Positions 2,195 to 43,984 of a stretch of 43,984 nucleotides of DNA are shown here, piece by piece; the stretch's first letter is position 1; every line of letters begins with the position of its first letter. Below the pieces are notes generated by a model. That model made no database searches. It was not told the origin of the DNA and was given only the letters and a program-made list of their open reading frames with translations. This DNA is from Escherichia phage UAB_Phi78, in the sequence record GU595417; one strand, 5' to 3'. The position numbers were made by a program, and so were the translations under genes.

Positions 2195-2314
2195 ATGTTT
2201 GCTGGTAAGCTTTATAACTTCATGTTCTCCGATGGTATCATGCTGAAATGCTCTCTTGCTTTCGCTAAAATGCGAGAGGAGACACTTGGAACTACATATA
2301 CACTAATTATGTGA
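2195..2314 (+). CDS. hypothetical small protein (39 aa)
   Basis: ATG directly after the ocr stop, with GAGGAGGAGGAA upstream; below the track cutoff. Confidence 0.3.
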   Translation: MFAGKLYNFMFSDGIMLKCSLAFAKMREETLGTTYTLIM

Positions 2315-6913: not shown

Positions 6914-7039
6914 ATGCGTACCAACTTCGAGAAAATCCGTAAAGCTAACCGTGACTTTGACATGGAAGTTAAGGGGAAGAAGTTGAACAAAGTCAAGCGC
7001 GACCGTTCTGCTAAACGTGCGTGGATGGAGGCTGCATAA
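6914..7039 (+). CDS. hypothetical small basic protein (41 aa)
   Basis: ATG with GAGGAATAA RBS; Lys/Arg-rich; below the track cutoff. Confidence 0.35.
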   Translation: MRTNFEKIRKANRDFDMEVKGKKLNKVKRDRSAKRAWMEAA

Positions 7040-7040
7040 C

Positions 7041-9020
7041 ATGGCGATTGTGAACAACATTCCTTGCCCTGAGTGCCAACGCAACGGACATGATAAATCG
7101 GGCAATCACCTCATGATATTTGAGGATGGCGCTGGTTACTGTAACCGTGGTCACTTCCATAATAGTGGTCGGCCCTACTACCACAAACCCGAAGGTGGCA
7201 TAGAAATCACTGAGCTTCCTATTACTGGCAACATTAAGTATACACCTTCACAGTTCCGTGAACTTGAAAAGGAAGGGAAGATAAGCGACCCTAAGCTGCG
7301 CGCCATTGCACTTGGCGGTATGCGTATGAAAGATCGTTGGGAGGTGATGAATGACGAAGAAAGGGCGGAGCAAGAAGCAGAATGGCAGCTTGACGTTGAG
7401 TGGTTCCTTGAACTTAAAAGGAAGAACCTTGTATCACGACACATTCGCGGAGACATTTGCGCCCTCTATGATGTCCGAGTCGGTCATGATGGAGAAGGCA
7501 AGGTTAACAGGCATTACTACCCTCGCTTCGAAGGTGGCAAACTTGTAGGCGCTAAGTGCCGGACGCTACCTAAAGACTTTAAGTTTGGACACCTAGGTAA
7601 ATTGTTCGGCAACCAAGACATGTTCGGCATGAACACAATGTCTAACGTGTTGGACAAGGGACGCCGTAAAGATACCCTGCTCATAGTAGGTGGTGAACTG
7701 GATGCCTTGGCCGCACAACAGATGCTTCTGGATTCTGCCAAAGGCACGAAGTGGGAAGGGCAACCCTATCATGTGTGGTCTATCAACAAGGGCGAGGCTT
7801 GCCTTGAAGAGATCGTGCAGAACCGTGAGCACATCTCACAATTCAAGAAGATTATGTGGGGCTTCGACGGCGATGAGGTAGGGCAGAAGCTGAACCAACA
7901 AGCGGCCCGCCTATTCCACGGTAAGTCTTATATCCTTGAGTACCCTGCTGGCTGCAAGGACGCTAACAAGGCGCTTATGGCTGGCAAATCTAAGGAGTTC
8001 GTCGATGCATGGTTCAATGCCAAGTCGTCAGATGAGGTCTTCGGTAGCCAGATTAAATCCATCGCATCTCAAAGGGATAAGCTGAAGGCTGCACGACCGG
8101 AACCGGGATTGTCTTGGCCTTGGCCTAAGCTGAACAAGATAACCCTTGGCATCCGTAAGCATCAGCTAATCATCGTCGGCGCTGGTTCTGGTGTAGGTAA
8201 GACGGAGTTCCTCCGCGAAGTAGTGAAGCATCTCATTGAAGAACACGGTGAATCTGTCGGTATTATCTCTACGGAAGACCCGATGGTTAAGGTCTCCCGC
8301 GCATTCATTGGTAAGTGGATAGATAAGCGTATTGAACTACCTCCAACCAATGACCCAAGGGAAGATGGCTACCGTGAGGTATTCGACTACACGGAGGAAG
8401 AGGCCAACGCTGCTATCGACTACGTTGCTGACACTGGTAAGCTGTTCGTGGCTGACCTTGAAGGTGACTATTCAATGGAGAAGGTAGAGCAGACTTGCCT
8501 TGAGTTCGAGGCAATGGGTATTTCCAACATCATCATTGATAACTTAACAGGAATTAAATTAGATGAACGAAATTTTGGTGGTAAAGTTGGTGCGCTTGAT
8601 GAGTGCGTCAAAAGAATCGGCACTATCAAAGACCGACATCCGGTTACTATCTTCCTTGTCTCGCACCTTACACGTCCTTCGGGGCAACGTACCTCACACG
8701 AAGAAGGTGGCGAGGTTATCCTTTCTGACTTCCGAGGCTCAGGAGCTATCGGATTCTGGGCTTCTTACGCCTTGGGGATTGAGCGTAATACAAGGGCTGA
8801 AACGCTTGATGAAAGGACTACCACGTACATCTCATGTGTCAAAGACCGAGACCAAGGCATCTACACTGGCACTAAGGTGATGCTTAAAGGCGATGTTAGT
8901 ACAGGTAGATTGATGGAACCACAAGCACGTACTAGGTCATTTGATACAGGCGCTCCAAAAGAGCAAGCTGTACCTGATGAATTAGGTGACACTATAGAAG
9001 ATAACACACAGGAGTTTTAA
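7041..9020 (+). CDS. DNA primase/helicase (T7 gp4-like)
   Basis: N-terminal zinc ribbon CPECQ...CNRGHFH, Walker A GAGSGVGKT, and an acidic C-terminal tail ending ...DNTQEF. The track ORF begins at an upstream GTG (7017); ATG 7041 with GGAGG upstream is preferred. Confidence 0.93.
   Translation: MAIVNNIPCPECQRNGHDKSGNHLMIFEDGAGYCNRGHFHNSGRPYYHKPEGGIEITELPITGNIKYTPSQFRELEKEGKISDPKLRAIALGGMRMKDRWEVMNDEERAEQEAEWQLDVEWFLELKRKNLVSRHIRGDICALYDVRVGHDGEGKVNRHYYPRFEGGKLVGAKCRTLPKDFKFGHLGKLFGNQDMFGMNTMSNVLDKGRRKDTLLIVGGELDALAAQQMLLDSAKGTKWEGQPYHVWSINKGEACLEEIVQNREHISQFKKIMWGFDGDEVGQKLNQQAARLFHGKSYILEYPAGCKDANKALMAGKSKEFVDAWFNAKSSDEVFGSQIKSIASQRDKLKAARPEPGLSWPWPKLNKITLGIRKHQLIIVGAGSGVGKTEFLREVVKHLIEEHGESVGIISTEDPMVKVSRAFIGKWIDKRIELPPTNDPREDGYREVFDYTEEEANAAIDYVADTGKLFVADLEGDYSMEKVEQTCLEFEAMGISNIIIDNLTGIKLDERNFGGKVGALDECVKRIGTIKDRHPVTIFLVSHLTRPSGQRTSHEEGGEVILSDFRGSGAIGFWASYALGIERNTRAETLDERTTTYISCVKDRDQGIYTGTKVMLKGDVSTGRLMEPQARTRSFDTGAPKEQAVPDELGDTIEDNTQEF
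7640..7655 (+). repeat. 16-bp near-palindromic element embedded in the primase coding sequence
   Basis: gtctaacgtgttggac, again translated as SNVLD. Confidence 0.7.
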
Positions 9021-9121
9021 ATGGATGAACTAGGCTTTTGGTTGTTCATGGTTGTATGTATCGTTATGATTAACCTAGACAAACTTGCCATGCTAATTAA
9101 GTAGTGTCCTTATCAGGGCTT

Positions 9122-9137
9122 GTCCAACATGTTGGAC
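9122..9137. repeat. 16-bp element, perfect-palindrome variant
   Basis: gtccaacatgttggac is its own reverse complement. Confidence 0.7.
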
Positions 9138-9176
9138 AGGCTCTTATTAAGCACATTAACTAACTGGAGATTAACT

Positions 9177-9869
9177 ATGAAGCTTAACTTAAAAGTAGGT
9201 GAACGTGTACGTAATATTCGTGTTGGATCTGCACGCGCAGGGTGGCAAGGTGCCGTCATCGTTGTAACAGAGGAGGAGTACGAAGTTCGATGGGATTGCG
9301 GAGAGAAGCAGGCTTATCTTCGTCGCTTCTCACACAAGAACCTTGAGCGCACACATGTAGCAAGCAAATGCACCTGTGTACACGATGAACTGTGTGACCG
9401 CTGTGCTCGTCAAGTCAGTAAGGCACTGACATTCATGGAGCGGTATGGTGCAGGTCACAAGACACTTGCGGAAGCAGCGTGGAATGTGCTCACGATCGAA
9501 CGCTCTAATGGTCGCAAGGTACTGAAGCGTGAGCGTCGTAATGTGATCACAGGCCAGACACAAGCAGAAATGCAAGCACAGTACGGGCCAGCAAAGGGCG
9601 GTATCATATTCAACACCCGTACATTAGGGCGCAGTACAGGTCAAGCCTTTCGCATCTTAGGCGAGGCCATGTGTAATCCTGGTATTGCTATACGTTATGA
9701 AGATGTAGACCATGCAATATCTGAAGGTACGAGTAATAGAGTTGTATTGAACAGACACTTTGAACAGGTGTTACGTGACACTATAGGTGAGCGCAAGGGC
9801 TTTACCTTTGAGCGCGGCCATGTTACATTTAACCCTATCGTTACGGAGGAAACCTATGTCACGCAATGA
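9177..9869 (+). CDS. hypothetical protein (230 aa)
   Basis: ATG 9177 with GGAG RBS; the track ORF starts upstream at 9120 inside the palindromic element, which is unlikely to be the true start. Confidence 0.6.
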   Translation: MKLNLKVGERVRNIRVGSARAGWQGAVIVVTEEEYEVRWDCGEKQAYLRRFSHKNLERTHVASKCTCVHDELCDRCARQVSKALTFMERYGAGHKTLAEAAWNVLTIERSNGRKVLKRERRNVITGQTQAEMQAQYGPAKGGIIFNTRTLGRSTGQAFRILGEAMCNPGIAIRYEDVDHAISEGTSNRVVLNRHFEQVLRDTIGERKGFTFERGHVTFNPIVTEETYVTQ

Positions 9870-10062
9870 CAGCAAGCACAGCCTGAAGTTCCTTGAGCAG
9901 CATGAAGACCTTGCAGCAAAGGTAACTAACCAAGCATTCCTGTTTGCACAACTCACACTGGCTGAAGCTAAGAAGAACAGCCTTACTCGTGAACAGATTA
10001 TTAAGGAAGGTTGCCGTGGTGCAACTCGTCGTATTAAGAACCACAGAAGTGGTGCTCGCTAG
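9856..10062 (+). CDS. hypothetical protein (68 aa)
   Basis: ATG 9856 with GGAGGAA RBS; start overlaps the end of the upstream gene. Confidence 0.5.
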   Translation: MSRNDSKHSLKFLEQHEDLAAKVTNQAFLFAQLTLAEAKKNSLTREQIIKEGCRGATRRIKNHRSGAR

Positions 10063-10079
10063 TTAATAAGTCGTGGCTT

Positions 10080-10095
10080 GTCTAACATGTTGGAC
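10080..10095 (+). repeat. 16-bp near-palindromic element
   Basis: gtctaacatgttggac. Confidence 0.7.
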
Positions 10096-10220
10096 AGGTC
10101 ACTATCATATTAATTGGAGGAATTACTGTATGATTAATTACGATTCTGATTGGGATTACGAAGATTCATTACAGCCTGAACCGGAGACACCAGACTACAA
10201 GTTTGAAACGGAGGCAATGT

Positions 10221-10439
10221 ATGAAGACTATTAAACTAAGTAAAGTTTGCTCTTGCGGTAAAGGTTATCGCAGTCGTATAGATGGTAAGTGTGGGCATTG
10301 CAGATCTAAGAAAGAGGCTGCTTTGTTTGATAAGTACCACCATGAATTAGCCTATAACTATCCTCATCTCACACCTAATTCTTTATTAGGAATTGGCTAT
10401 AGGGTTAAATACTTTGGAGCAGTCTATGAAATCAATTGA
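10221..10439 (+). CDS. small zinc-ribbon-like protein (72 aa)
   Basis: ATG 10221 with GGAGG RBS; cysteine pairs CSCGKG...CGHC. Confidence 0.5.
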   Translation: MKTIKLSKVCSCGKGYRSRIDGKCGHCRSKKEAALFDKYHHELAYNYPHLTPNSLLGIGYRVKYFGAVYEIN

Positions 10440-12972
10440 TTGGAAGAGGGAGGCGGAAGGTCGTATCCTAGTGATGGATGCGGAAGCTAAAGGTCTGCTT
10501 GATGCTATCCGCTACGGGCATCGTGAAGATGTGCATATCATTTGCTGCATGGACTTGCTTACTACCGAGGAGTTCCTCTTCTTTGACCCATATGAGATGC
10601 GTGACCCTGAAGCAAGAGAACGCCTGAAAGAGTGGGAAGGCCATCAAGATGGTGACTTGGTTGATGGTGTTAACTTCCTGAAGTACTGTGAAGCTATCGT
10701 GTCACAGAACTTCTTAGGATATGACGGCCTGCTCTTTGAGAAAGCATTCCCTAATATCTGGAAAGGCTTTAACTACACAGAGAAGCGCGGCAAGGGCAGG
10801 CTCCGTGCCGACCTGTGTCCTGTGCGGGTCATGGACACACTGGTGATGAGCCGCCTGTTAAACCCCGATAGACGCCTCCCTCCGCAAGCATACGCCAAAG
10901 GTATGGGTAACGTCGCCCCTCACTCTATTGAGGCGCATGGTATCCGTATCGGTCGCTATAAGCCTGAGAACGAGGACTGGTCTAAGCTGACAGACCACAT
11001 GGTTCATCGTGTACGTGAGGACGTGGCGATCGGTCGTGACCTGTTCCTGTGGCTATATAATGGCGAGTGGATGGAGCACAAGCGGCGTGGTGTCAATCCA
11101 CGGACTGGCCTTGGCATTGAGACGGCCTTTCACATGGAGTCTATTGTAGCACTGGAGATGTCCCGTCAAGCGGAGCGTGGCTTCCGGTTGGATATAGACA
11201 AGGCACTGGCACGATGCCAGGAACTTGACCAGAAGATCGACGAGACGGTTGCAGCATTCCGACCTCACATGCCAATGCGTATCAAGTCTAAACCCTTCAA
11301 ACCTCAAGAGAAGCAGGAGCAGGTAGATGCAGCAAACTCATTTAGTTTACAGAATCAGATTGGTGTTACGCTTGGAGCCGATGCTTTCATTCATGCCGAG
11401 CGGCGCTCCGATAGGAAGACTGTATGGTCAGTCACTACTAAGTCAGGTGATTGGTCGGCTACTGTCAAGAAAGACTTCCCTCACATCCGAGGAAACATCA
11501 ATGATACTCCGAGCATTAAACACATCGGGCCATATACACCTGTCACCTTCGAAGATATCCCGCTTGGCAACCGAGATACCGTTAAGCAGGTTCTGTATGA
11601 CTTTGGGTGGCGGGGTGTTGAGTTCAACGACACTGAACAATCTTATCTGGACGAGCATGGAGTGTTGCCTAAACCTTGGAGTGGAAAGATAAATGAGAAG
11701 TCCCTTACTTTATGGCAGGAAAGGGCTGCACGTGAAGGTAAGTCAGTCCCTGATTGGTGCTTGGGTATCGCTGCATGGTACATACTCGTTTCCCGTCGTG
11801 GTCAGATCCTCAACCGTGGTGATGTTGAAACCTTCGATGCAACGGGGCGTTGGCCCTCGCAAGCTGGTGTACGAAAGTGTCGCGGCCTTATACCTGTAGC
11901 CTTTAATAAGGAGCTAGGTATCAATGCACAGACGTACTACGAAACGTATGGCTACTGGCCTACGTCCGATAAGGATGACGGAGAGTGGCGTGTTCCCGCT
12001 GTTGCTATTTCTATTGGCACTTCTACGTTCCGTATGCGTCACAGGAATGTGGTTAACATCCCCGCTCGTGGCCTTTACCCTCTTCGTGATTTATTCATAG
12101 CTGGTAAAGGTAAGATGATTCTTGGTTGTGACGGTGCAGGTCTGGAGTTGCGTGTACTCTCGCACTTCATGAACGACCCTGAGTACCAAGAGATCGTCCT
12201 GCATGGTGACATTCATACACATAACCAGCTCAAGGCTGGCCTGCCTAAGCGTGATATGGCGAAGACCTTTATCTACGCATTCCTGTATGGCTCAGGTATT
12301 GCCAACCTCGCTGCGGTATGTGGCGTAACTGAAGATGAGATGAAGGAAGTTGTTGCACGCTTTGAGATAGAGCTACCTTCATTGGCAAGACTTCGTGAGA
12401 ATGTTATTGCGGCAGGTAATCGATATGGATACCTCCAGGCACCTGACGGTCATTGGGGCCGCATCCGTATGAGCGGTGGTGTACTTAAAGAGCACACCAT
12501 GCTTAACGTATTACTCCAGATGACAGGCTCATTGTGCATGAAGTATGCATTGGTTAAGGCCTTTGCAGTCATGCGCCGTGAAGGTGTGGCACTAGATGAC
12601 ATGGGAAATCCGTGTGGCGTGGCTAACGTACACGATGAAATCCAGATGGAAGTACCAGAAGAGGAGGTGTTGTACCTTGACTATGAATTGCCTTTCACGC
12701 TGGAAGGTTTCGAAAATGAGAAGCAAGCCATCAAAGCTGTGTTCGACCCTGAAGAGAAACGTGTGCATGTGGACTCAGAGGGTCGTATGTGGTCTGCTGC
12801 TAACTTGGTTGAAGTTGATGCTGCTGCTGGTGTGCTGCGTTGTCAGCGTCGCTACCACAGGGCTGGTCATATTATCGCTGACGCCATGACTTGGGCTGGC
12901 AAGTATCTTAACATGCGCTGCCCTATGGCTGGCGAATATAAAATAGGTGCAAGTTGGAAGGAGACACACTAA
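10426..12972 (+). CDS. DNA polymerase (family A, T7 gp5-like)
   Basis: Pol I motif B KTFIYAFLYG, motif C VHDE, and an N-terminal exonuclease-like region. ATG 10426 with GGAG RBS is preferred over the track start at 10393. Confidence 0.93.
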   Translation: MKSIDWKREAEGRILVMDAEAKGLLDAIRYGHREDVHIICCMDLLTTEEFLFFDPYEMRDPEARERLKEWEGHQDGDLVDGVNFLKYCEAIVSQNFLGYDGLLFEKAFPNIWKGFNYTEKRGKGRLRADLCPVRVMDTLVMSRLLNPDRRLPPQAYAKGMGNVAPHSIEAHGIRIGRYKPENEDWSKLTDHMVHRVREDVAIGRDLFLWLYNGEWMEHKRRGVNPRTGLGIETAFHMESIVALEMSRQAERGFRLDIDKALARCQELDQKIDETVAAFRPHMPMRIKSKPFKPQEKQEQVDAANSFSLQNQIGVTLGADAFIHAERRSDRKTVWSVTTKSGDWSATVKKDFPHIRGNINDTPSIKHIGPYTPVTFEDIPLGNRDTVKQVLYDFGWRGVEFNDTEQSYLDEHGVLPKPWSGKINEKSLTLWQERAAREGKSVPDWCLGIAAWYILVSRRGQILNRGDVETFDATGRWPSQAGVRKCRGLIPVAFNKELGINAQTYYETYGYWPTSDKDDGEWRVPAVAISIGTSTFRMRHRNVVNIPARGLYPLRDLFIAGKGKMILGCDGAGLELRVLSHFMNDPEYQEIVLHGDIHTHNQLKAGLPKRDMAKTFIYAFLYGSGIANLAAVCGVTEDEMKEVVARFEIELPSLARLRENVIAAGNRYGYLQAPDGHWGRIRMSGGVLKEHTMLNVLLQMTGSLCMKYALVKAFAVMRREGVALDDMGNPCGVANVHDEIQMEVPEEEVLYLDYELPFTLEGFENEKQAIKAVFDPEEKRVHVDSEGRMWSAANLVEVDAAAGVLRCQRRYHRAGHIIADAMTWAGKYLNMRCPMAGEYKIGASWKETH

Positions 12973-13070
12973 TGCAAACAGTTATTATCATAGGAGTTGT
13001 ATTATTATTCGCGGTAGTATTTTGGGCCTTCTCAGGTACTGACCCAGATTGTGATGGTAATTACGATTAA
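12972..13070 (+). CDS. small hydrophobic peptide (32 aa)
   Basis: ATG overlaps the polymerase stop (TAATG); AAGGAGA 9 nt upstream; single predicted transmembrane segment; below the track cutoff. Confidence 0.3.
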   Translation: MQTVIIIGVVLLFAVVFWAFSGTDPDCDGNYD

Positions 13071-13099
13071 GTTAGATTCACCTAAATTCTTCTTACTTG

Positions 13100-13120
13100 A
13101 TTTAGGTGACACTATAGAAG
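13100..13120 (+). promoter_or_regulatory. SP6-type phage promoter (consensus)
   Basis: Exact atttaggtgacactatagaag. Confidence 0.9.
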
Positions 13121-13184
13121 GACAGCCAAGGTAATCTAGGTTATTAAGGCAGTATAGGTAATTAGGTAATATAGGAGAATAAAT

Positions 13185-13562
13185 ATGTCTATGGTAACTA
13201 TCCTTGTAGCAATGTCTCAGTACCTGCGTAGCCTGTCTGTTCGTATGAAGAACAAGGCTATCAAGGCAATTAAAGATCGCATCGCTGTAGTTGAGGCGGA
13301 GCAGGTAGAGTTAGAAGAGAGCCGAAGCAATCGCATGGTTGATTGCCACAAGCGATACTATGCATCTTATGAAGACCTTCGTGCTCGATACGTCAAAGAG
13401 GTGGCTGAGTTACTGGAGCGTCATGAGACGGAGCAGCGTAATCTGAAGGCAGACTTTGAAGAGAACAAGCGCACTATTGCACTTACCTCTCAGGCTGCAT
13501 CTAATGAACTGAAGCGTGAACTTGTAATGCTTAGTTCTGAACTGGATAACCTAACCAAGTAA
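13185..13562 (+). CDS. hypothetical protein (125 aa), coiled-coil-like
   Basis: TAGGAGAATAA RBS; charged heptad-like sequence. Confidence 0.6.
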   Translation: MSMVTILVAMSQYLRSLSVRMKNKAIKAIKDRIAVVEAEQVELEESRSNRMVDCHKRYYASYEDLRARYVKEVAELLERHETEQRNLKADFEENKRTIALTSQAASNELKRELVMLSSELDNLTK

Positions 13563-13581
13563 TTAGGTGACACTGTAGAAC
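13560..13581 (+). promoter_or_regulatory. SP6-type phage promoter (variant)
   Basis: taattaggtgacactgtagaac. Confidence 0.7.
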
Positions 13582-13641
13582 AATAGGTCGATTAAGTTCG
13601 GCCTATGATTGTATCGTGTAACCAAAAGGAGGAATTAATTA

Positions 13642-14451
13642 ATGGCTCGTAATGAATTTAACTTTGGTGCTGAAATTGCCACTTCAACTGGTGGGGTATT
13701 CAAGAACCCAGATGTTGGCGACCATGAAGCTGTTATCTCAGGCATCATTCATGTTGGTTCCTTTCAAGATATATTCAAGAAAGGTAACACTACTGAAGTG
13801 AAGAAGCCAGCTAACTTTGTACTGGTCAAGGTTGTGCTGATGGGCGATGAAGACAAGAACGATGATGACTCTCGCATGGAGCAGTGGATGGCTGTGCCGC
13901 TGAAGTCAGGCGACAAGGCTACGCTTACCAAGTTCCTGAATGCAGTTGACCCGCGTGAGCAGCTTGGAGGTTTCGATGACTTCATTGGAGAATGCATGAC
14001 CGTAAGCATGGTTGGCGATGACAAAGGTGGTAAGAATGAAGATGGCACCTTCAAGTATGTTAACTGGAAGGGATTCGGCGGTATGCCGGATAAGCTGAAG
14101 AAGCTGGTACTGGCTCAGGTTGAAGAGGAAGGTCTGACCATGACAGGTCACATCACCTTCGACAAGCTGACCAAAGACATCATCGACTCTATCCCTGCAC
14201 ACCTTGTCCGTCAGTACCTGCTAAATGAGACACCTCGTGGCAAGAACCTGTCAGTAGCTGGCTCTCACGTAGAGACTATCATTGCTGAAGCTCGTGCCGC
14301 TGACCCTGAGTGGAAGAAGGCCAAGAAGAAAGACAATGACGCTACACCGGAAGACCGTAAGCCGCTAGACACCGGCGCTGCTGTTCCGCAGGAAGTGCCG
14401 GAAGCGCAGAATGCCCCGGCACCTGCTATGGATGAAGATGCTGAGTATTAA
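13642..14451 (+). CDS. hypothetical protein with acidic C-terminal tail (candidate ssDNA-binding protein)
   Basis: AAGGAGG RBS; 269 aa; C-terminus ...PAMDEDAEY is acidic with an aromatic last residue, as in T7 gp2.5. The functional assignment is inference only. Confidence 0.55.
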   Translation: MARNEFNFGAEIATSTGGVFKNPDVGDHEAVISGIIHVGSFQDIFKKGNTTEVKKPANFVLVKVVLMGDEDKNDDDSRMEQWMAVPLKSGDKATLTKFLNAVDPREQLGGFDDFIGECMTVSMVGDDKGGKNEDGTFKYVNWKGFGGMPDKLKKLVLAQVEEEGLTMTGHITFDKLTKDIIDSIPAHLVRQYLLNETPRGKNLSVAGSHVETIIAEARAADPEWKKAKKKDNDATPEDRKPLDTGAAVPQEVPEAQNAPAPAMDEDAEY

Positions 14452-14792: not shown

Positions 14793-15161
14793 ATGTTCAC
14801 TATCGAAACTATCGTAAACCGTGTTGTTAAAGGCGCTACCCTGGTATCCGTTGAGTCTTTCATTATCGTCGATGAAGCTGGCTCGCTGGTAGCTGGTACT
14901 AAGGCTTATGATACCCGTGAAGAAGCTCAGGCTAAGATTGACAGCATGGGTAACTTTGCTGCTGGTCTGGAGTTCGCACGTGCTTGCTTCCCGGAGCAGG
15001 CTGACAAAGCTCAGATTGGTAAGGCTAACATCGTAGCTGAATATCTGGACTGGATTGAAGCAGGTAAGCCTGTGAAAGAAGCTAAGTCTGCTGAAGTTGT
15101 TGAAGCTGCTGCCGAAGAAGCTCCGGTTGCTGCTCAGGTGAGCGAAGAAGAAGAGTTCTAA
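14793..15161 (+). CDS. hypothetical protein with acidic C-terminal tail (122 aa)
   Basis: GAAGGAGAA RBS; ends ...SEEEEF; followed directly by a strong terminator. Confidence 0.65.
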   Translation: MFTIETIVNRVVKGATLVSVESFIIVDEAGSLVAGTKAYDTREEAQAKIDSMGNFAAGLEFARACFPEQADKAQIGKANIVAEYLDWIEAGKPVKEAKSAEVVEAAAEEAPVAAQVSEEEEF

Positions 15162-19555: not shown

Positions 19556-19694
19556 AGGTTGGGATATGCTGGAGAATATTATCCTAGCTCCATCAAGACC
19601 TAGACCAGATAAGTCACACGAAGAGTTAGTATGGGATGAAGCCAAGCGCTATATCCTGTCTTGTATCAAGCAGCAGTTTGTGGTGCAGCCATGA
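19518..19694 (+). CDS. hypothetical protein (58 aa)
   Basis: ATG with GGAGG RBS; overlaps the neighbouring ORFs in another frame and ends in an ATGA junction with the next gene; below the track cutoff. Confidence 0.3.
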   Translation: MATTKKKPTINIEGWDMLENIILAPSRPRPDKSHEELVWDEAKRYILSCIKQQFVVQP

Positions 19695-36288: not shown

Positions 36289-36483
36289 ATGGTTGATTCC
36301 GAACTGGTTAGCGGCGGGATGAAGTTAGCGCCATCTGCCTTAGTCTCAGGTGGGTACTTCCTCGGCATCAGTTGGGACAATTGGGTACTGATTGCGACAT
36401 TCATTTATACTGTGTTGCAAATCGGCGATTGGTTCTACAGCAAATACTCGTTATGTAAGGAGAAGAAACGTGGCAAGTCATAA
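36289..36483 (+). CDS. putative holin (single transmembrane segment, 64 aa)
   Basis: ATG 36289 with TAGGAGGTAAG RBS; one transmembrane segment ISWDNWVLIATFIYTVLQIGDWFY and a basic C-terminus; same position as T7 gp17.5. Confidence 0.55.
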   Translation: MVDSELVSGGMKLAPSALVSGGYFLGISWDNWVLIATFIYTVLQIGDWFYSKYSLCKEKKRGKS

Positions 36484-39110: not shown

Positions 39111-39398
39111 ATGGCTAAATATGGTGAAGGTTCTGTTACTGGTCAGGCTTTTCGAGTAAAGGCAGTACAAACTATTGCAACGGCAATCCCCATGCCTGTT
39201 GTTGCTGAAGCAGACCTTAAGAAGAAAGATCACCCTATCAACATTAAACACCTATCTGGTAAGCAGAAGGGTGCGATGATTGCTGTTGAGAAAGAAGGCC
39301 CAACCCTGTATATTGCTATTGCACGTGGTAGTGAACCTACTGACCCTTGGGATACAACCACTATGGAGGGAGACCCTGTCACTCCAACAGGGGACTAA
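39111..39398 (+). CDS. hypothetical small protein, paralogue B (95 aa)
   Basis: AGAGGAGGA RBS; paralogous to the upstream gene. Confidence 0.65.
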   Translation: MAKYGEGSVTGQAFRVKAVQTIATAIPMPVVAEADLKKKDHPINIKHLSGKQKGAMIAVEKEGPTLYIAIARGSEPTDPWDTTTMEGDPVTPTGD

Positions 39399-39400
39399 TA

Positions 39401-39745
39401 ATGCTTAACAAGTACTTCAAGCGTAAAGAGTTCGCTTGCCGTTGTGGATGCGGCACATCCACTGTTGATGCTGAATTACTACAGGTAGTCACAGATGTGC
39501 GTGAGCACTTTGGTGCTCCTGTGGTTATCACTTCTGGGCATCGCTGTGCTAAGCACAACTTAAATGTTGGTGGCGCTCGTGGCTCCAAGCATCTGCTTGG
39601 CATTGCTGCTGACATTAACGTGAAGGGTGTATCTCCTATACGGGTGCGAGAGTACCTATGCAATAAGTATCCTGACAAGTACGGCATTGGTGCTTACACG
39701 AACTTCACACACATCGATGTGCGCTCTAACAAGGCTAGGTGGTAA
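39401..39745 (+). CDS. endolysin, zinc peptidase M15 family
   Basis: SGHRCAKHN...GSKH...AADI...THIDVR zinc-binding His/Asp pattern of M15 peptidases; ATG 39401 (the track starts at 39347). Confidence 0.8.
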   Translation: MLNKYFKRKEFACRCGCGTSTVDAELLQVVTDVREHFGAPVVITSGHRCAKHNLNVGGARGSKHLLGIAADINVKGVSPIRVREYLCNKYPDKYGIGAYTNFTHIDVRSNKARW

Positions 39746-39882
39746 TGAAGGGTTGCATTGCATACTGTGAGCGTAAGGTAAAGGAGGCCAGTGAAGCTGG
39801 AAACTACACTGACTTCCAGAACTATACGCACCTTCTGAACGAATGGAAAGTGAGGGCTGGTTGTGAAACTGTTAAAGAGTAA
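39745..39882 (+). CDS. hypothetical small protein (45 aa)
   Basis: ATG overlaps the endolysin stop (TAATG); below the track cutoff. Confidence 0.3.
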   Translation: MKGCIAYCERKVKEASEAGNYTDFQNYTHLLNEWKVRAGCETVKE

Positions 39883-40009
39883 GAAGGTAGTAGCAGCACT
39901 GGTAGGTTTGGTGGTAGCGTTGGTTTCTGTCGGCATGGGTGTTGAGTTTGGCGCTCAGACTGCCGATGCAGTTACCAGTGTTGTCTGCCAAGCCGTAGGC
40001 TGTGAATAA
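39863..40009 (+). CDS. small membrane peptide (48 aa)
   Basis: GTG start 6 nt after GAGGG; a basic N-terminus followed by a hydrophobic segment (VVAALVGLVVALVSVGMGV). Confidence 0.3.
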   Translation: MKLLKSKKVVAALVGLVVALVSVGMGVEFGAQTADAVTSVVCQAVGCE

Positions 40010-40211
40010 ACTTCTTAAGGTGCTGGCAGGTCTACTTGGCCTGCTGGTTGCCTACAAGCGAGAACAAGAGCAGAAGGAGGCTCAACGTGAAGCGAATCAT
40101 GCTAGCGACAATCCTGCTGATTGGTTCGCTGATCACTTCCGGGTGCGGGACGGCGTTACCAGAACGCCCAACCAAGCCGACGCTGACGGCAGTGTACGAG
40201 GTGGACGATAA
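40002..40211 (+). CDS. putative i-spanin (Rz-like)
   Basis: N-terminal transmembrane segment LLKVLAGLLGLLVAY followed by a charged region; GTG start overlaps the upstream stop. Confidence 0.5.
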   Translation: MNKLLKVLAGLLGLLVAYKREQEQKEAQREANHASDNPADWFADHFRVRDGVTRTPNQADADGSVRGGR

Positions 40212-40284
40212 GGTCTGCTTCAGCAAGCCTGATGCTACACAACTTGGACTGTACATTTTATCGCTAGAACGCGGCTACAATTAA
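40086..40284 (+). CDS. putative o-spanin (Rz1-like lipoprotein) overlapping the i-spanin in the +1 frame
   Basis: GTG 40086, 7 nt after AAGGAGG; KRIMLATILLIGSLITSGC signal peptide with lipobox-like SGC, then a Pro-rich mature part. Confidence 0.5.
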
Positions 40285-43672: not shown

Positions 43673-43816
43673 ATGCCCTTAGTGAAGTCTATCAAGGAGA
43701 AGGCTGTACTCCAGAACACAGAAGAGCTAATCAAGTCCGGTCGTGACCCTAAGCAGGCTTATGCCATTGCTAAGGATGTACAGCGACGTGCCTTGAAGAA
43801 GCCTTCTGCATCTTAG
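43673..43816 (+). CDS. hypothetical small basic protein (47 aa)
   Basis: In-frame ATG 43673 after GAGG; the track ORF starts upstream inside the tailspike gene. Confidence 0.4.
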   Translation: MPLVKSIKEKAVLQNTEELIKSGRDPKQAYAIAKDVQRRALKKPSAS

Positions 43817-43869: not shown

Positions 43870-43947
43870 ATGTATATTCCAATGGAAGCAGTAGTAGGTA
43901 TCGCTTGTTTGCTAGTAGGGTTTGTCATAGGTTTGATAGCACAATAA
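43870..43947 (+). CDS. small hydrophobic peptide (25 aa)
   Basis: AAAGGAGATAACATG; MYIPMEAVVGIACLLVGFVIGLIAQ; below the track cutoff. Confidence 0.3.
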   Translation: MYIPMEAVVGIACLLVGFVIGLIAQ

Positions 43948-43984
43948 TGGTGGTCACAAAGTAGCCAAAGTCAAAATTTTGATA

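Follow-up and report, generated by a model that had tools for sequence, protein, structure and literature searches.

How many of the very short open reading frames (ORFs) of a densely packed phage genome are real genes, and what could be encoded by the two that flank its DNA polymerase gene? We addressed this question in a window of 43,984 nucleotides (record GU595417), by which we mean the whole stretch of DNA that was analysed. The original prediction listed six ORFs of fewer than 60 amino acids (aa), each said to carry a well-spaced Shine-Dalgarno (SD) sequence. All six are present where they had been placed, in frame from ATG to stop (Table 1). The statement about SDs holds for five of them (10130-10234, 12972-13070, 2195-2314, 6914-7039 and 43870-43947), but not for the ORF at 39745-39882, which is preceded by a weak AAGG/GGTGG. 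The list was also incomplete. Further small ORFs that are SD-preceded or otherwise supported lie at 1306-1482, 2384-2539, 9021-9104, 19566-19694 and 43673-43816, and a GTG-start ORF lies at 39863-40009. Below, the 34-aa and 32-aa ORFs on either side of the polymerase gene are termed ORF A and ORF B.

Table 1. Positions of the small ORFs and of neighbouring features in the window
Feature	Position	Strand	Details
39-aa peptide	2195..2314	+	directly after ocr-like gene; UAB_Phi78 ORF7; SP6 gene 53; K1-5/K1E gene 4; phrog_11746
41-aa very basic peptide	6914..7039	+	before primase/helicase gene; UAB_Phi78 ORF12; K1-5/K1E gene 8; phrog_2490
Stable RNA hairpin	10073..10102	+	between the preceding gene's stop and the RBS of ORF A; 13-bp stem, -21.5 kcal/mol, z -3.6
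SD of ORF A (GGAGG)	10116..10120	+	9 nt before ATG; ATTGATTGGAGG conserved in all relatives
ORF A, 34-aa acidic-aromatic microprotein	10130..10234	+	UAB_Phi78 ORF18; K1E gp11.5 family; phrog_15473
72-aa Cys-rich (CxC...CxxC) gene	10221..10439	+	between ORF A and polymerase gene; phrog_12821, E 9e-48
DNA polymerase gene	10426..12972	+	95-100% identity to SP6-group polymerases
ORF B, 32-aa single-pass membrane peptide	12972..13070	+	UAB_Phi78 ORF21; SP6 gp15; K1-5/K1E gp14; phrog_4539
SP6-type phage promoter, perfect	13100..13120	+	0 mismatches to ATTTAGGTGACACTATAGAAG
45-aa soluble Cys/Trp-containing peptide	39745..39882	+	lysis cassette, between endolysin and holin-like TM gene; UAB_Phi78 ORF53; SP6 gene 55; phrog_1312
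25-aa hydrophobic single-TM peptide	43870..43947	+	just inside right genome end; UAB_Phi78 ORF58; SP6 gene 52; phrog_37692

The source genome is that of the SP6-like Salmonella podovirus UAB_Phi78, and the window agrees with its published gene table. Table 2 of that publication lists ORF7 (39 aa), ORF12 (41 aa), ORF18, ORF21 (32 aa), ORF53 (45 aa) and ORF58 (25 aa) (Bardina et al. 2016, PMC4837284). These published ORFs are equal to those of the window in length and order, their coordinates being shifted by 62-118 nt. All six small ORFs had been annotated there as "unknown", and none is new. Annotated counterparts of all six are found in SP6, K1-5, K1E or pSL2 (SP6 genes 15, 52, 53 and 55; K1-5 genes 4, 8 and 14; K1E genes 4, 8, 11.5 and 14), with ORF A annotated in pSL2 as well as in UAB_Phi78. 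Each of the six matches a PHROG profile HMM whose family is labelled 'unknown function'. ORF A matches phrog_15473 with an E-value of 6.3e-21 (residues 1-34 on profile positions 2-35 of 35) and ORF B matches phrog_4539 with 3.3e-14 (residues 1-28 on positions 4-32 of 32), while the other four give full-length matches to phrog_11746 (9e-27), phrog_2490 (2.4e-14), phrog_1312 (7.1e-14) and phrog_37692 (6.4e-20). Searches of the small ORFs against Pfam, NCBIfam and PADLOC returned no named family except Phage_1_1 for the 41-aa basic peptide, and a literature search found no functional study of these six peptides. The published annotations of UAB_Phi78, SP6, K1-5 and K1E are identical in substance to the present ORFs and came without an analysis of function or selection.

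Next, we asked whether the six ORFs behave as coding sequences. Conservation of the ORFs and their ribosome-binding sites (RBSs) in related genomes had been proposed as a check, and its outcome was positive. Intact ORFs with their RBSs or stop-start coupling are kept across diverged relatives, pN/pS ranges from 0.13 to 0.39 across the six, variation is concentrated at third codon positions, and each ORF is under purifying selection, in agreement with the proposal that these sub-60-aa ORFs are real genes. Small ORFs also exceed what is expected by chance: in the 4,796 gap bases lying outside genes of at least 60 aa, 10 of the 18 ATG-initiated ORFs of 20-59 aa on the coding strand are SD-preceded, compared with only one (1/8) on the opposite strand of the same bases. 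In ORF B, the covariation of the RBS with the peptide was an additional argument for coding. The last codons of the polymerase gene, which form this RBS, read AAG GAG (K-E) in phages that have the peptide, while in pSL2 and BP12B, which are devoid of it, the gene ends in GCG GAA (A-E); AAGGAG is found in the polymerase end only where ORF B follows.

The four ORFs remote from the polymerase gene follow the same pattern. All 11 genomes of the comparison contain the 39-aa ORF (pN/pS 0.28; variable sites 14/14/34 by codon position), the 41-aa ORF (pN/pS 0.26) and the 45-aa ORF (pN/pS 0.39), the last of these with an in-frame stop in its LL11 copy. The 41-aa peptide matches Pfam PF08200 (Phage_1_1) over model positions 1-40 of 40, with 47.5 bits against a gathering cutoff of 21; the closest match given for it in Table 2 of the UAB_Phi78 publication is T7 gene 1.1 (PMC4837284). 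The 45-aa ORF has the A of its ATG at 39745, which is also the last base of the endolysin stop codon (ORF 39347-39745), and homologues of this peptide carry a precomputed Pfam PF26839 match. In the 25-aa ORF, both SD and ORF are intact in the diverged Kenya-K30 and AAPEc6, with a pN/pS of 0.16-0.28. A purely cis-acting DNA element at this position was rejected in view of these intact diverged copies with low pN/pS.

Could some or all of these ORFs be untranslated, their conservation stemming from nucleotide signals such as RBSs of neighbouring genes, promoters, RNA structures or end-processing? The 25-aa ORF lends itself to such an explanation: SP6 and BP12B carry it without a nucleotide change, and the neighbouring terminal cis element retains 97% conservation as far as Proteus phages. 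The weak SD and the interrupted LL11 copy of the 45-aa ORF point the same way, as does the 27-aa ORF at 9021-9104, which is common only to the window and pSL2. However, substitutions cluster at synonymous positions in all six ORFs, and ORF length is held at 46-75% protein identity; in the 25-aa ORF, length and SD are intact at 74% nucleotide identity. Moreover, an Rfam and tRNA search of the entire window gave no match, so none overlaps the six ORFs. Absence of translation is thus very improbable. In conclusion, the substitution patterns and the retained RBSs indicate that the six ORFs are very probably real coding genes.

ORFs A and B are accessory genes on either side of the polymerase gene, in slots where homing-endonuclease genes are accommodated as well. 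Together with the Cys-rich gene and the polymerase gene they form a transcription unit that ends at the promoter downstream of ORF B, the upstream promoter being located at 8980-9000. The slot between ORF A and the polymerase gene varies in content: BP12B has nothing there, LL11, L022 and L095 have HNH genes, and L096 has a 55-aa ORF. ORF A itself is absent from L016, L021 and L037, in which the polymerase ATG directly follows the RBS of ORF A, and ORF B is absent from pSL2, BP12B and NTNC80A. Since these close relatives do without them, both peptides are dispensable. The two polymerase flanks are insertion hot spots at which accessory microgenes and homing endonucleases alternate. The hairpin upstream of ORF A is conserved in relatives with and without ORF A, and may be a candidate RNA processing or attenuation site.

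ORF A encodes MINYDSDWDYEDSLQPEPETPDYKFETEAMYEDY, with a net charge of about -11.5 and with 12 D/E and seven aromatics among its 34 residues. As had been proposed, it overlaps the start of the next gene, reaching 14 nt into the Cys-rich gene. Among 16 distinct nucleotide versions the median pN/pS is 0.29, synonymous sites are near saturation, and the variable sites are distributed 16/16/27 over the three codon positions. D-S-D-W is invariant among 11 aligned members, and the tail, variable in sequence, is acidic in all members of the family. A profile search of 5.8 billion clusters retrieved 33 protein clusters (29-56 aa), each of them from SP6-like contigs, over which the motif [YFW]-D-S-D-W-D-Y-x-D is almost invariant; the exceptions are one ESDW, one DSDWDW, and some phage copies with F or N at the final two positions of the motif. 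When 1.84 billion representatives were searched exhaustively with an HMM, the only matches were short stand-alone peptides and a single repeat protein, judged spurious, and neither collection contained a larger protein or a fusion with the motif. Judging from these searches, the family consists of stand-alone microproteins restricted to SP6-like phages, and its members always occupy the slot that precedes the DNA polymerase gene. In the C-terminus of ORF A, part of the conservation is imposed by the downstream gene, whose RBS and start overlap it.

ORF B encodes MQTVIIIGVVLLFAVVFWAFSGTDPDCDGNYD. Its SD (AAGGAG) is located at 12958-12963, 8 nt upstream, and its coupling to the polymerase stop, which had been suggested previously, takes the form of an ATG that overlaps the polymerase TAA (TAATG). 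Homologues are present in 67 phage records, with 69-97% identity. Six distinct nucleotide versions exist; against other lineages pS is 0.59-0.65 while pN is only 0.13-0.15, and variable sites are distributed 9/6/17 by codon position. The peptide ends in an acidic tail, [ITV]DPD[CY]DGNYD, in which DPD[CY]DGNYD is invariant but for the [CY] position despite synonymous change. Within this tail, all six distinct copies have an EF-hand-like D-x-D-x-D-G core (DPDCDG or DPDYDG). The complete 12-residue EF-hand loop with an acidic position 12 and flanking helices is absent from ORF B, which ends nine residues past the first Asp, and ORF B has no EF-hand Pfam match. A search of IMG/VR with a degenerate DNA pattern of the tail retrieved nine contigs, all of them already known, and a concatenated TM38+TM32 query retrieved TM38 homologues only, on SP6-like contigs.

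As to function, the original prediction considered that such peptides often act as inhibitors of host proteins or as membrane effectors. This is a generic guess, and a reasonable one: the compositions of the peptides are compatible with it, one being extremely acidic, two single-TM and one very basic. Our searches yielded no target, structure or named family to back such a role, the sole named family being that of T7 gene 1.1. Herein, we propose a mechanism for each of the two flanking peptides. The ORF A peptide would be intrinsically disordered and acidic-aromatic, and its N-terminal DSDWDY(x)D(S) motif, together with the variable poly-acidic tail, could act as a decoy for a basic surface. 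This surface would be a nucleic-acid-binding or tail-binding one, on a host or a phage protein. The decoy is modelled on the T7 small class II host-takeover proteins and on the acidic tails of T7 gp2.5 and gp4. The ORF B peptide would insert into the inner membrane in an N-in/C-out orientation (the LL11 record annotates it as 'TMD N in C out'), display its conserved DxDxDG-type acidic tail, and modulate an envelope protein or process. As a pair, these mechanisms are tentative and rather doubtful. Less likely again is a stronger form of the first, in which ORF A represents a new class of minimal, roughly 30-residue disordered phage decoys whose invariant motif plugs a conserved basic pocket, either on the phage replisome or on a host protein that binds DNA or serves in defence. 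If this were true, ORF A would be the smallest known phage inhibitor of its kind, and would explain how SP6-group phages perform functions without the T7-type genes.

Two other explanations of ORF A have to be weighed against the decoy. The peptide might be a functionless product of a translational-coupling leader, with ribosomes stopping 14 nt inside the next gene and thereby being delivered to the polymerase gene or to an inserted gene. The downstream gene does have its GGAGG and its ATG within the last codons of ORF A, the 14-nt overlap is kept regardless of which gene is downstream, and the C-terminal residues of ORF A follow the identity of that gene. Nevertheless, a leader requires no specific sequence, whereas the N-terminal motif is almost invariant despite near-saturated synonymous sites. 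Furthermore, coupling is not required, since phages without ORF A have the polymerase gene straight behind the same RBS. The leader explanation is accordingly improbable. Slightly better placed, and unlikely nonetheless, is a role as a replisome factor: a free mimic of the acidic tails of helicase and single-stranded DNA-binding protein (SSB), which docks on the polymerase or in the DNA-binding cleft of the SSB and regulates hand-offs at the fork. ORF A is always beside the polymerase gene and in one transcription unit with it, and S-W-D and D-W-S motifs occur in the T7 gp2.5 and gp4 tails. Acidic tails with a terminal aromatic are also present in the window, where the primase/helicase ends in ..EDNTQEF, a 122-aa protein in ..SEEEEF and the 269-aa OB-fold protein in ..MDEDAEY, the last of which is still conserved in relatives with as little as about 29% identity. 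Against this role, the terminal aromatic is not conserved in the ORF A family (the window copy ends in Y, many members in N, E, A, Q, D or C), ORF A is dispensable in some lineages, and adjacency to an enzyme gene predicts function weakly in T7-type genomes. AlphaFold2 did not support docking either. In a single-chain fusion of ORF A to the polymerase through a (G4S)6 linker (paired, shallow alignment; no PAE), the polymerase part was well folded while the peptide had a pLDDT of 26-28 and no secondary structure; in a fusion with the OB-fold protein, a putative SSB (single chain, shallow alignment, no PAE), the peptide had a pLDDT of 39-47 and only a four-residue helix. Neither fusion, each a weak test of docking, lends confidence to a binding of ORF A to the polymerase or the putative SSB.

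For ORF B, the alternative to a modulator of the host envelope is a lysis-timing, holin-like or superinfection-exclusion peptide, acting with a partner, TM38, in K1-5 and K1E. Its build would suit such a role, as it comprises a single TM segment in 32 aa, no basic residues and an acidic tail, and its accessory, variable presence is often seen in exclusion genes and morons. In the relative L040 (polymerase identity 55%), the stop of the polymerase gene is likewise overlapped by a TM peptide, which has 28 aa and is not homologous. However, ORF B belongs to the replication module, far from the holin-like gene 36289-36483 and from the endolysin/spanin cassette at 39401-40284; it matches phrog_4539 rather than the holin family phrog_4712, which is matched by ORF 39863-40009; and it has no dual start. 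We regard a lysis or exclusion peptide as unlikely. Taken jointly with the decoy and envelope-modulator mechanisms, the reading that we prefer, with a probability of roughly 0.6, is that the six ORFs are genuine, translated and conserved microprotein genes that are ordinary parts of densely packed T7/SP6-type phage genomes.

The finding of the small ORFs is correct and ordinary, since all six were already annotated in UAB_Phi78 and its relatives, and with the ORFs also present in PHROGs its value as a discovery is small. What is added to the earlier annotation is the evidence of purifying selection, the family motifs, the dispensability of the two flanking peptides and the architecture of the slots. 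The selection analysis provides evidence that the hypothetical microgenes are real, and at least 11 real or likely genes of this 44-kb genome of the T7 supergroup go unnoticed when a cutoff of 60 aa is applied. Two peptides, the acidic DSDWDY peptide and the DPDxDGNYD membrane peptide, are tractable phage-microprotein candidates.

Several known systems resemble these peptides in part. The 41-aa peptide has the RNA polymerase gene on one side and the replication genes on the other, as does T7 gene 1.1. The T7 copy, however, directly follows gene 1; in the window, a gene of 136 aa separates the 41-aa ORF from the RNA polymerase gene, and the ORF borders directly on the primase/helicase gene. To our knowledge, the gene 1.1 family has no known function in T7 either. 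AcrZ, MgtS and KdpF are single-TM microproteins that regulate membrane proteins; like them, ORF B and the 25-aa peptide consist of one hydrophobic helix with short tails, while the acidic DPDxDGNYD tail of ORF B is without counterpart there. Comparison of these two TM peptides with named families gave only chance-level, sub-cutoff matches (DUF7512, Vpu, HmcD).

ORF A has two sets of possible counterparts in T7. Ocr, Gp2 and gp5.9 are small, densely negative proteins that are expressed with DNA-metabolism genes and that form folded domains of 52-116 aa. ORF A, from a phage of the T7 supergroup, is likewise small, of high negative charge density and expressed together with DNA-metabolism genes, yet it has only 34 aa and is predicted to be disordered. 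Pfam, the PHROG functional families and PADLOC gave no sequence or profile similarity of ORF A to these three proteins. For an Ocr-like DNA mimic, the charge density of ORF A fits, while no fold was predicted in the single-chain fusions. The second set is formed by the acidic tails of gp2.5 and gp4, in which a C-terminal aromatic residue is essential. Unlike these tails, ORF A is a free 34-aa protein rather than part of an SSB or helicase, its conserved element is N-terminal instead of C-terminal, and a terminal aromatic is not a family trait. The likeness of its DSDWDYEDS to ..EESWDEDDEE.. (gp2.5) and ..ESTDWSNDTDF (gp4) is short and of low complexity, so that no significance can be assigned to it. 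Like the tails, ORF A is strongly acidic and studded with aromatics, with Trp in a Ser/Asp context; its window copy ends in Tyr, and it is encoded beside the polymerase gene.

All six sub-60-aa ORFs of the original prediction were found in the window exactly as described (table below). The Shine-Dalgarno (SD) sequences attributed to them held for the 34-aa ORF A and the 32-aa ORF B, while that at 39745-39882 proved weak, but its ATG and the endolysin stop codon have one base in common. ORF A is indeed highly acidic (12 acidic, one basic and seven aromatic residues; net charge about -11.5) and runs 14 nt into the gene that follows, and ORF B is coupled to the polymerase gene, whose stop codon its ATG overlaps (TAATG). 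Within the 4.8 kb outside genes of at least 60 aa, ten SD-preceded small ORFs lie on the coding strand versus one on the opposite strand; thus, the pattern exceeds chance.

Features of the window discussed in the text
Feature	Coordinates	Description
ORF A	10130-10234	34 aa, MINYDSDWDYEDSLQPEPETPDYKFETEAMYEDY; GGAGG 9 nt upstream
ORF B	12972-13070	32 aa, MQTVIIIGVVLLFAVVFWAFSGTDPDCDGNYD; AAGGAG 8 nt upstream
39-aa ORF	2195-2314	
41-aa ORF	6914-7039	basic
25-aa ORF	43870-43947	
Lysis cassette	39401-40284	five ORFs, in the order of the next five rows
Endolysin	39401-39745	first in cassette
45-aa soluble peptide	39745-39882	second, between endolysin and holin-family TM gene
Holin-like ORF	39863-40009	third; 48-aa holin-family TM protein, GTG start
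i-spanin-like ORF	40002-40211	
o-spanin ORF	within 40036-40284	lipoprotein-type, overlapping i-spanin-like ORF
Further sub-60-aa ORF	1306-1482	
Further sub-60-aa ORF	2384-2539	51-aa signal/TM peptide
Further sub-60-aa ORF	9021-9104	27-aa TM ORF
Further sub-60-aa ORF	19566-19694	
Further sub-60-aa ORF	43673-43816	47-aa peptide
RNA hairpin	10073-10102	strong; 13-bp stem, -21.5 kcal/mol, z -3.6; between stop of gene 9856-10062 and RBS of ORF A
Primase/helicase tail	8961-9020	acidic, C-terminal aromatic, ..EDNTQEF
269-aa OB-fold protein tail	14400-14451	acidic, C-terminal aromatic, ..MDEDAEY
122-aa protein tail	15120-15161	acidic, C-terminal aromatic, ..SEEEEF

The comparison drew on eleven complete genomes of relatives and, for the surroundings of the polymerase gene, on 69 IMG/VR loci. 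ORF A, in 16 distinct nucleotide versions, had a median pN/pS of 0.29, with synonymous divergence near saturation (pS 0.5-0.9) and 16, 16 and 27 variable sites by codon position. For ORF B (six distinct versions), pN was 0.13-0.15 and pS 0.59-0.65 between the window and other lineages, variable sites numbered 9, 6 and 17, and the tail DPD[CY]DGNYD was retained through synonymous changes. The last polymerase codons read AAG GAG, an SD, where ORF B follows, versus GCG GAA in pSL2 and BP12B, which lack it. The 39-, 41- and 45-aa ORFs were present in all eleven genomes (pN/pS 0.28, 0.26 and 0.39, respectively). The 25-aa ORF, whose SP6 and BP12B copies are nucleotide-identical and uninformative for selection, keeps both its reading frame and its SD in Kenya-K30 and AAPEc6, where nucleotide identity is 74-86% (pN/pS 0.16-0.28). 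Searches for Rfam families and tRNAs showed no overlap with the six. From this purifying selection, the intact ORFs and SDs in relatives, the SD codons linked to ORF B and the lack of Rfam or tRNA overlap, we infer that all six ORFs are protein-coding, which supports the prediction of real small genes.

Nine SP6-type promoters (ATTTAGGTGACACTATAGAAG, 0-3 mismatches) occur in the window, where chance would give none. Over 9000-14000, Salmonella phage GRNsp51 shares 99.3% identity with the window, pSL2 97% and SP6 about 90%. Table 2 of the published description of Salmonella phage UAB_Phi78 (Bardina et al. 2016, PMC4837284) gives the same order of genes and the same ORF lengths, with coordinates shifted by 62-118 nt. 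The window, IMG/VR entry UViG_2595698432 (43,984 bp), therefore belongs to the genus Zindervirus, SP6-like podoviruses within the T7 supergroup. That table lists all six small ORFs, as ORFs 7, 12, 18, 21, 53 and 58, each 'Unknown' (Bardina et al. 2016, PMC4837284). Among relatives, small genes of this kind are annotated in the records of SP6 (genes 15, 52, 53, 55), K1-5 (4, 8, 12, 13.5, 14), K1E (4, 8, 11.5, 14) and pSL2 (five of the six). PHROG holds a family of unknown function for each of the six, the 41-aa peptide matches Pfam PF08200 (T7 gene 1.1 protein; 47.5 bits, cutoff 21), homologues of the 45-aa peptide bear PF26839, and NCBIfam and PADLOC searches with the small ORFs gave no match. 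Thus, the six had been annotated before and are ordinary components of genomes in the SP6 group. The DSDWDY microprotein (ORF A) is the only one deserving an experiment.

The original list was incomplete, since six more sub-60-aa ORFs occur in the window. Four of these, the GTG-start holin-family ORF among them, show conservation at low pN/pS or PHROG matches; 9021-9104, coupled to the helicase stop and shared with pSL2 alone, is doubtful as a gene. An in-frame stop interrupts the 47-aa ORF in K1E, and another the 45-aa lysis-cassette ORF in LL11 (39512-39640). Either these stops are sequencing errors or they show that the genes can be lost. The final 36 nt of the window (43949-43984), adjoining the start of the terminal repeat, keep about 97% identity even in Proteus phages and probably act in cis in end processing or packaging.

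Phage promoters at 8980 and 13100 bound a single transcription unit made up of ORF A, the Cys-rich and polymerase genes and ORF B. An inverted repeat with 10-bp arms (TCACCTAAAT...ATTTAGGTGA) spans 13079-13120, and its right arm doubles as the 5' half of a perfect SP6 promoter (13100-13120); the repeat's fold barely beats shuffled sequences (z -2.0). Both polymerase-gene flanks are insertion hot spots (window 10221-10439 and 12972-13100; loci L021, L022, L024, L027, L050, L095 and L096 of relatives). Upstream, the gap after ORF A is empty in BP12B and holds a Cys-rich 72-81-aa gene in the window, K1E and CrRp3, an HNH endonuclease in LL11, L022 and L095, and a 55-aa ORF in L096; most inserts (Cys-rich and HNH genes) overlap the polymerase start by the identical 14 nt. 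Downstream, the slot holds ORF B alone, TM38 with ORF B, an HNH endonuclease gene or nothing.

The ORF B peptide lacks basic residues and combines a single hydrophobic helix (residues ~4-20) with a tail of 12 residues whose net charge is -4; of a calcium-binding loop, this tail has the core alone. The LL11 annotation predicts an N-in/C-out orientation. Just upstream, K1-5, K1E and LL11 encode gp13.5 (TM38), a 38-aa peptide of similar architecture ending DIPDEEEGYD. The single helix and conserved DxDxDG-type acidic tail suggest that this microprotein sits in the membrane and acts on the periplasmic side; family searches and the layout of the lysis cassette revealed no link to lysis genes.

ORF A occupies a constant slot, 3' of a hairpin, possibly an attenuator or a site of RNase III-type processing, and 5' of the polymerase gene. 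The hairpin is kept in relatives, including those whose polymerase gene comes right after it. Because the three phages lacking ORF A place the polymerase gene immediately behind the same hairpin and RBS, ORF A is dispensable and unnecessary for polymerase expression. Family searches retrieved 33 clusters, all of them stand-alone peptides (29-56 aa) from SP6-like contigs of ~44 kb; among 1.84 billion proteins there were nine representatives, one a spurious repeat protein. A nearly invariant N-terminal motif, [YFWH]-[DE]-S-D-W-D-[YFW]-x-D-[SRA]-[LMF], precedes a variable acidic tail, whose end is partly set by the overlapping RBS and start of whichever gene comes next. SP6 gp13 (53 aa) and K1-5 gp12 (50 aa) are longer and have only the tail in common.

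In composition, ORF A resembles two C-terminal tails of T7 that are acidic and contain aromatic residues, those of gp2.5 (..EESWDEDDEESEEADEDGDF) and gp4 (..ESTDWSNDTDF); the binding sites of these tails are basic patches of T7 DNA polymerase and the cleft of the SSB. Docking was therefore tested with AF2 single-chain fusions of ORF A to the polymerase or the OB-fold protein, using paired alignments. Neither partner was supported, peptide pLDDT being 26-28 and 39-47, respectively. Moreover, unlike the T7 tails, the family does not conserve a terminal aromatic residue, and its conserved motif is N-terminal. For these reasons a replisome-specific factor mimicking acidic tails is not supported. 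Three replication-module proteins themselves end in an acidic tail with a C-terminal aromatic, kept in the OB-fold protein even in relatives at ~29% identity, which suggests a T7-like acidic-tail network. Our best guess for ORF A, tentative at a probability of roughly 0.3, is a disordered acidic-aromatic decoy that would cover a protein's basic surface, whether the protein comes from the host or the phage, a role comparable to that of T7's small class II host-takeover proteins.
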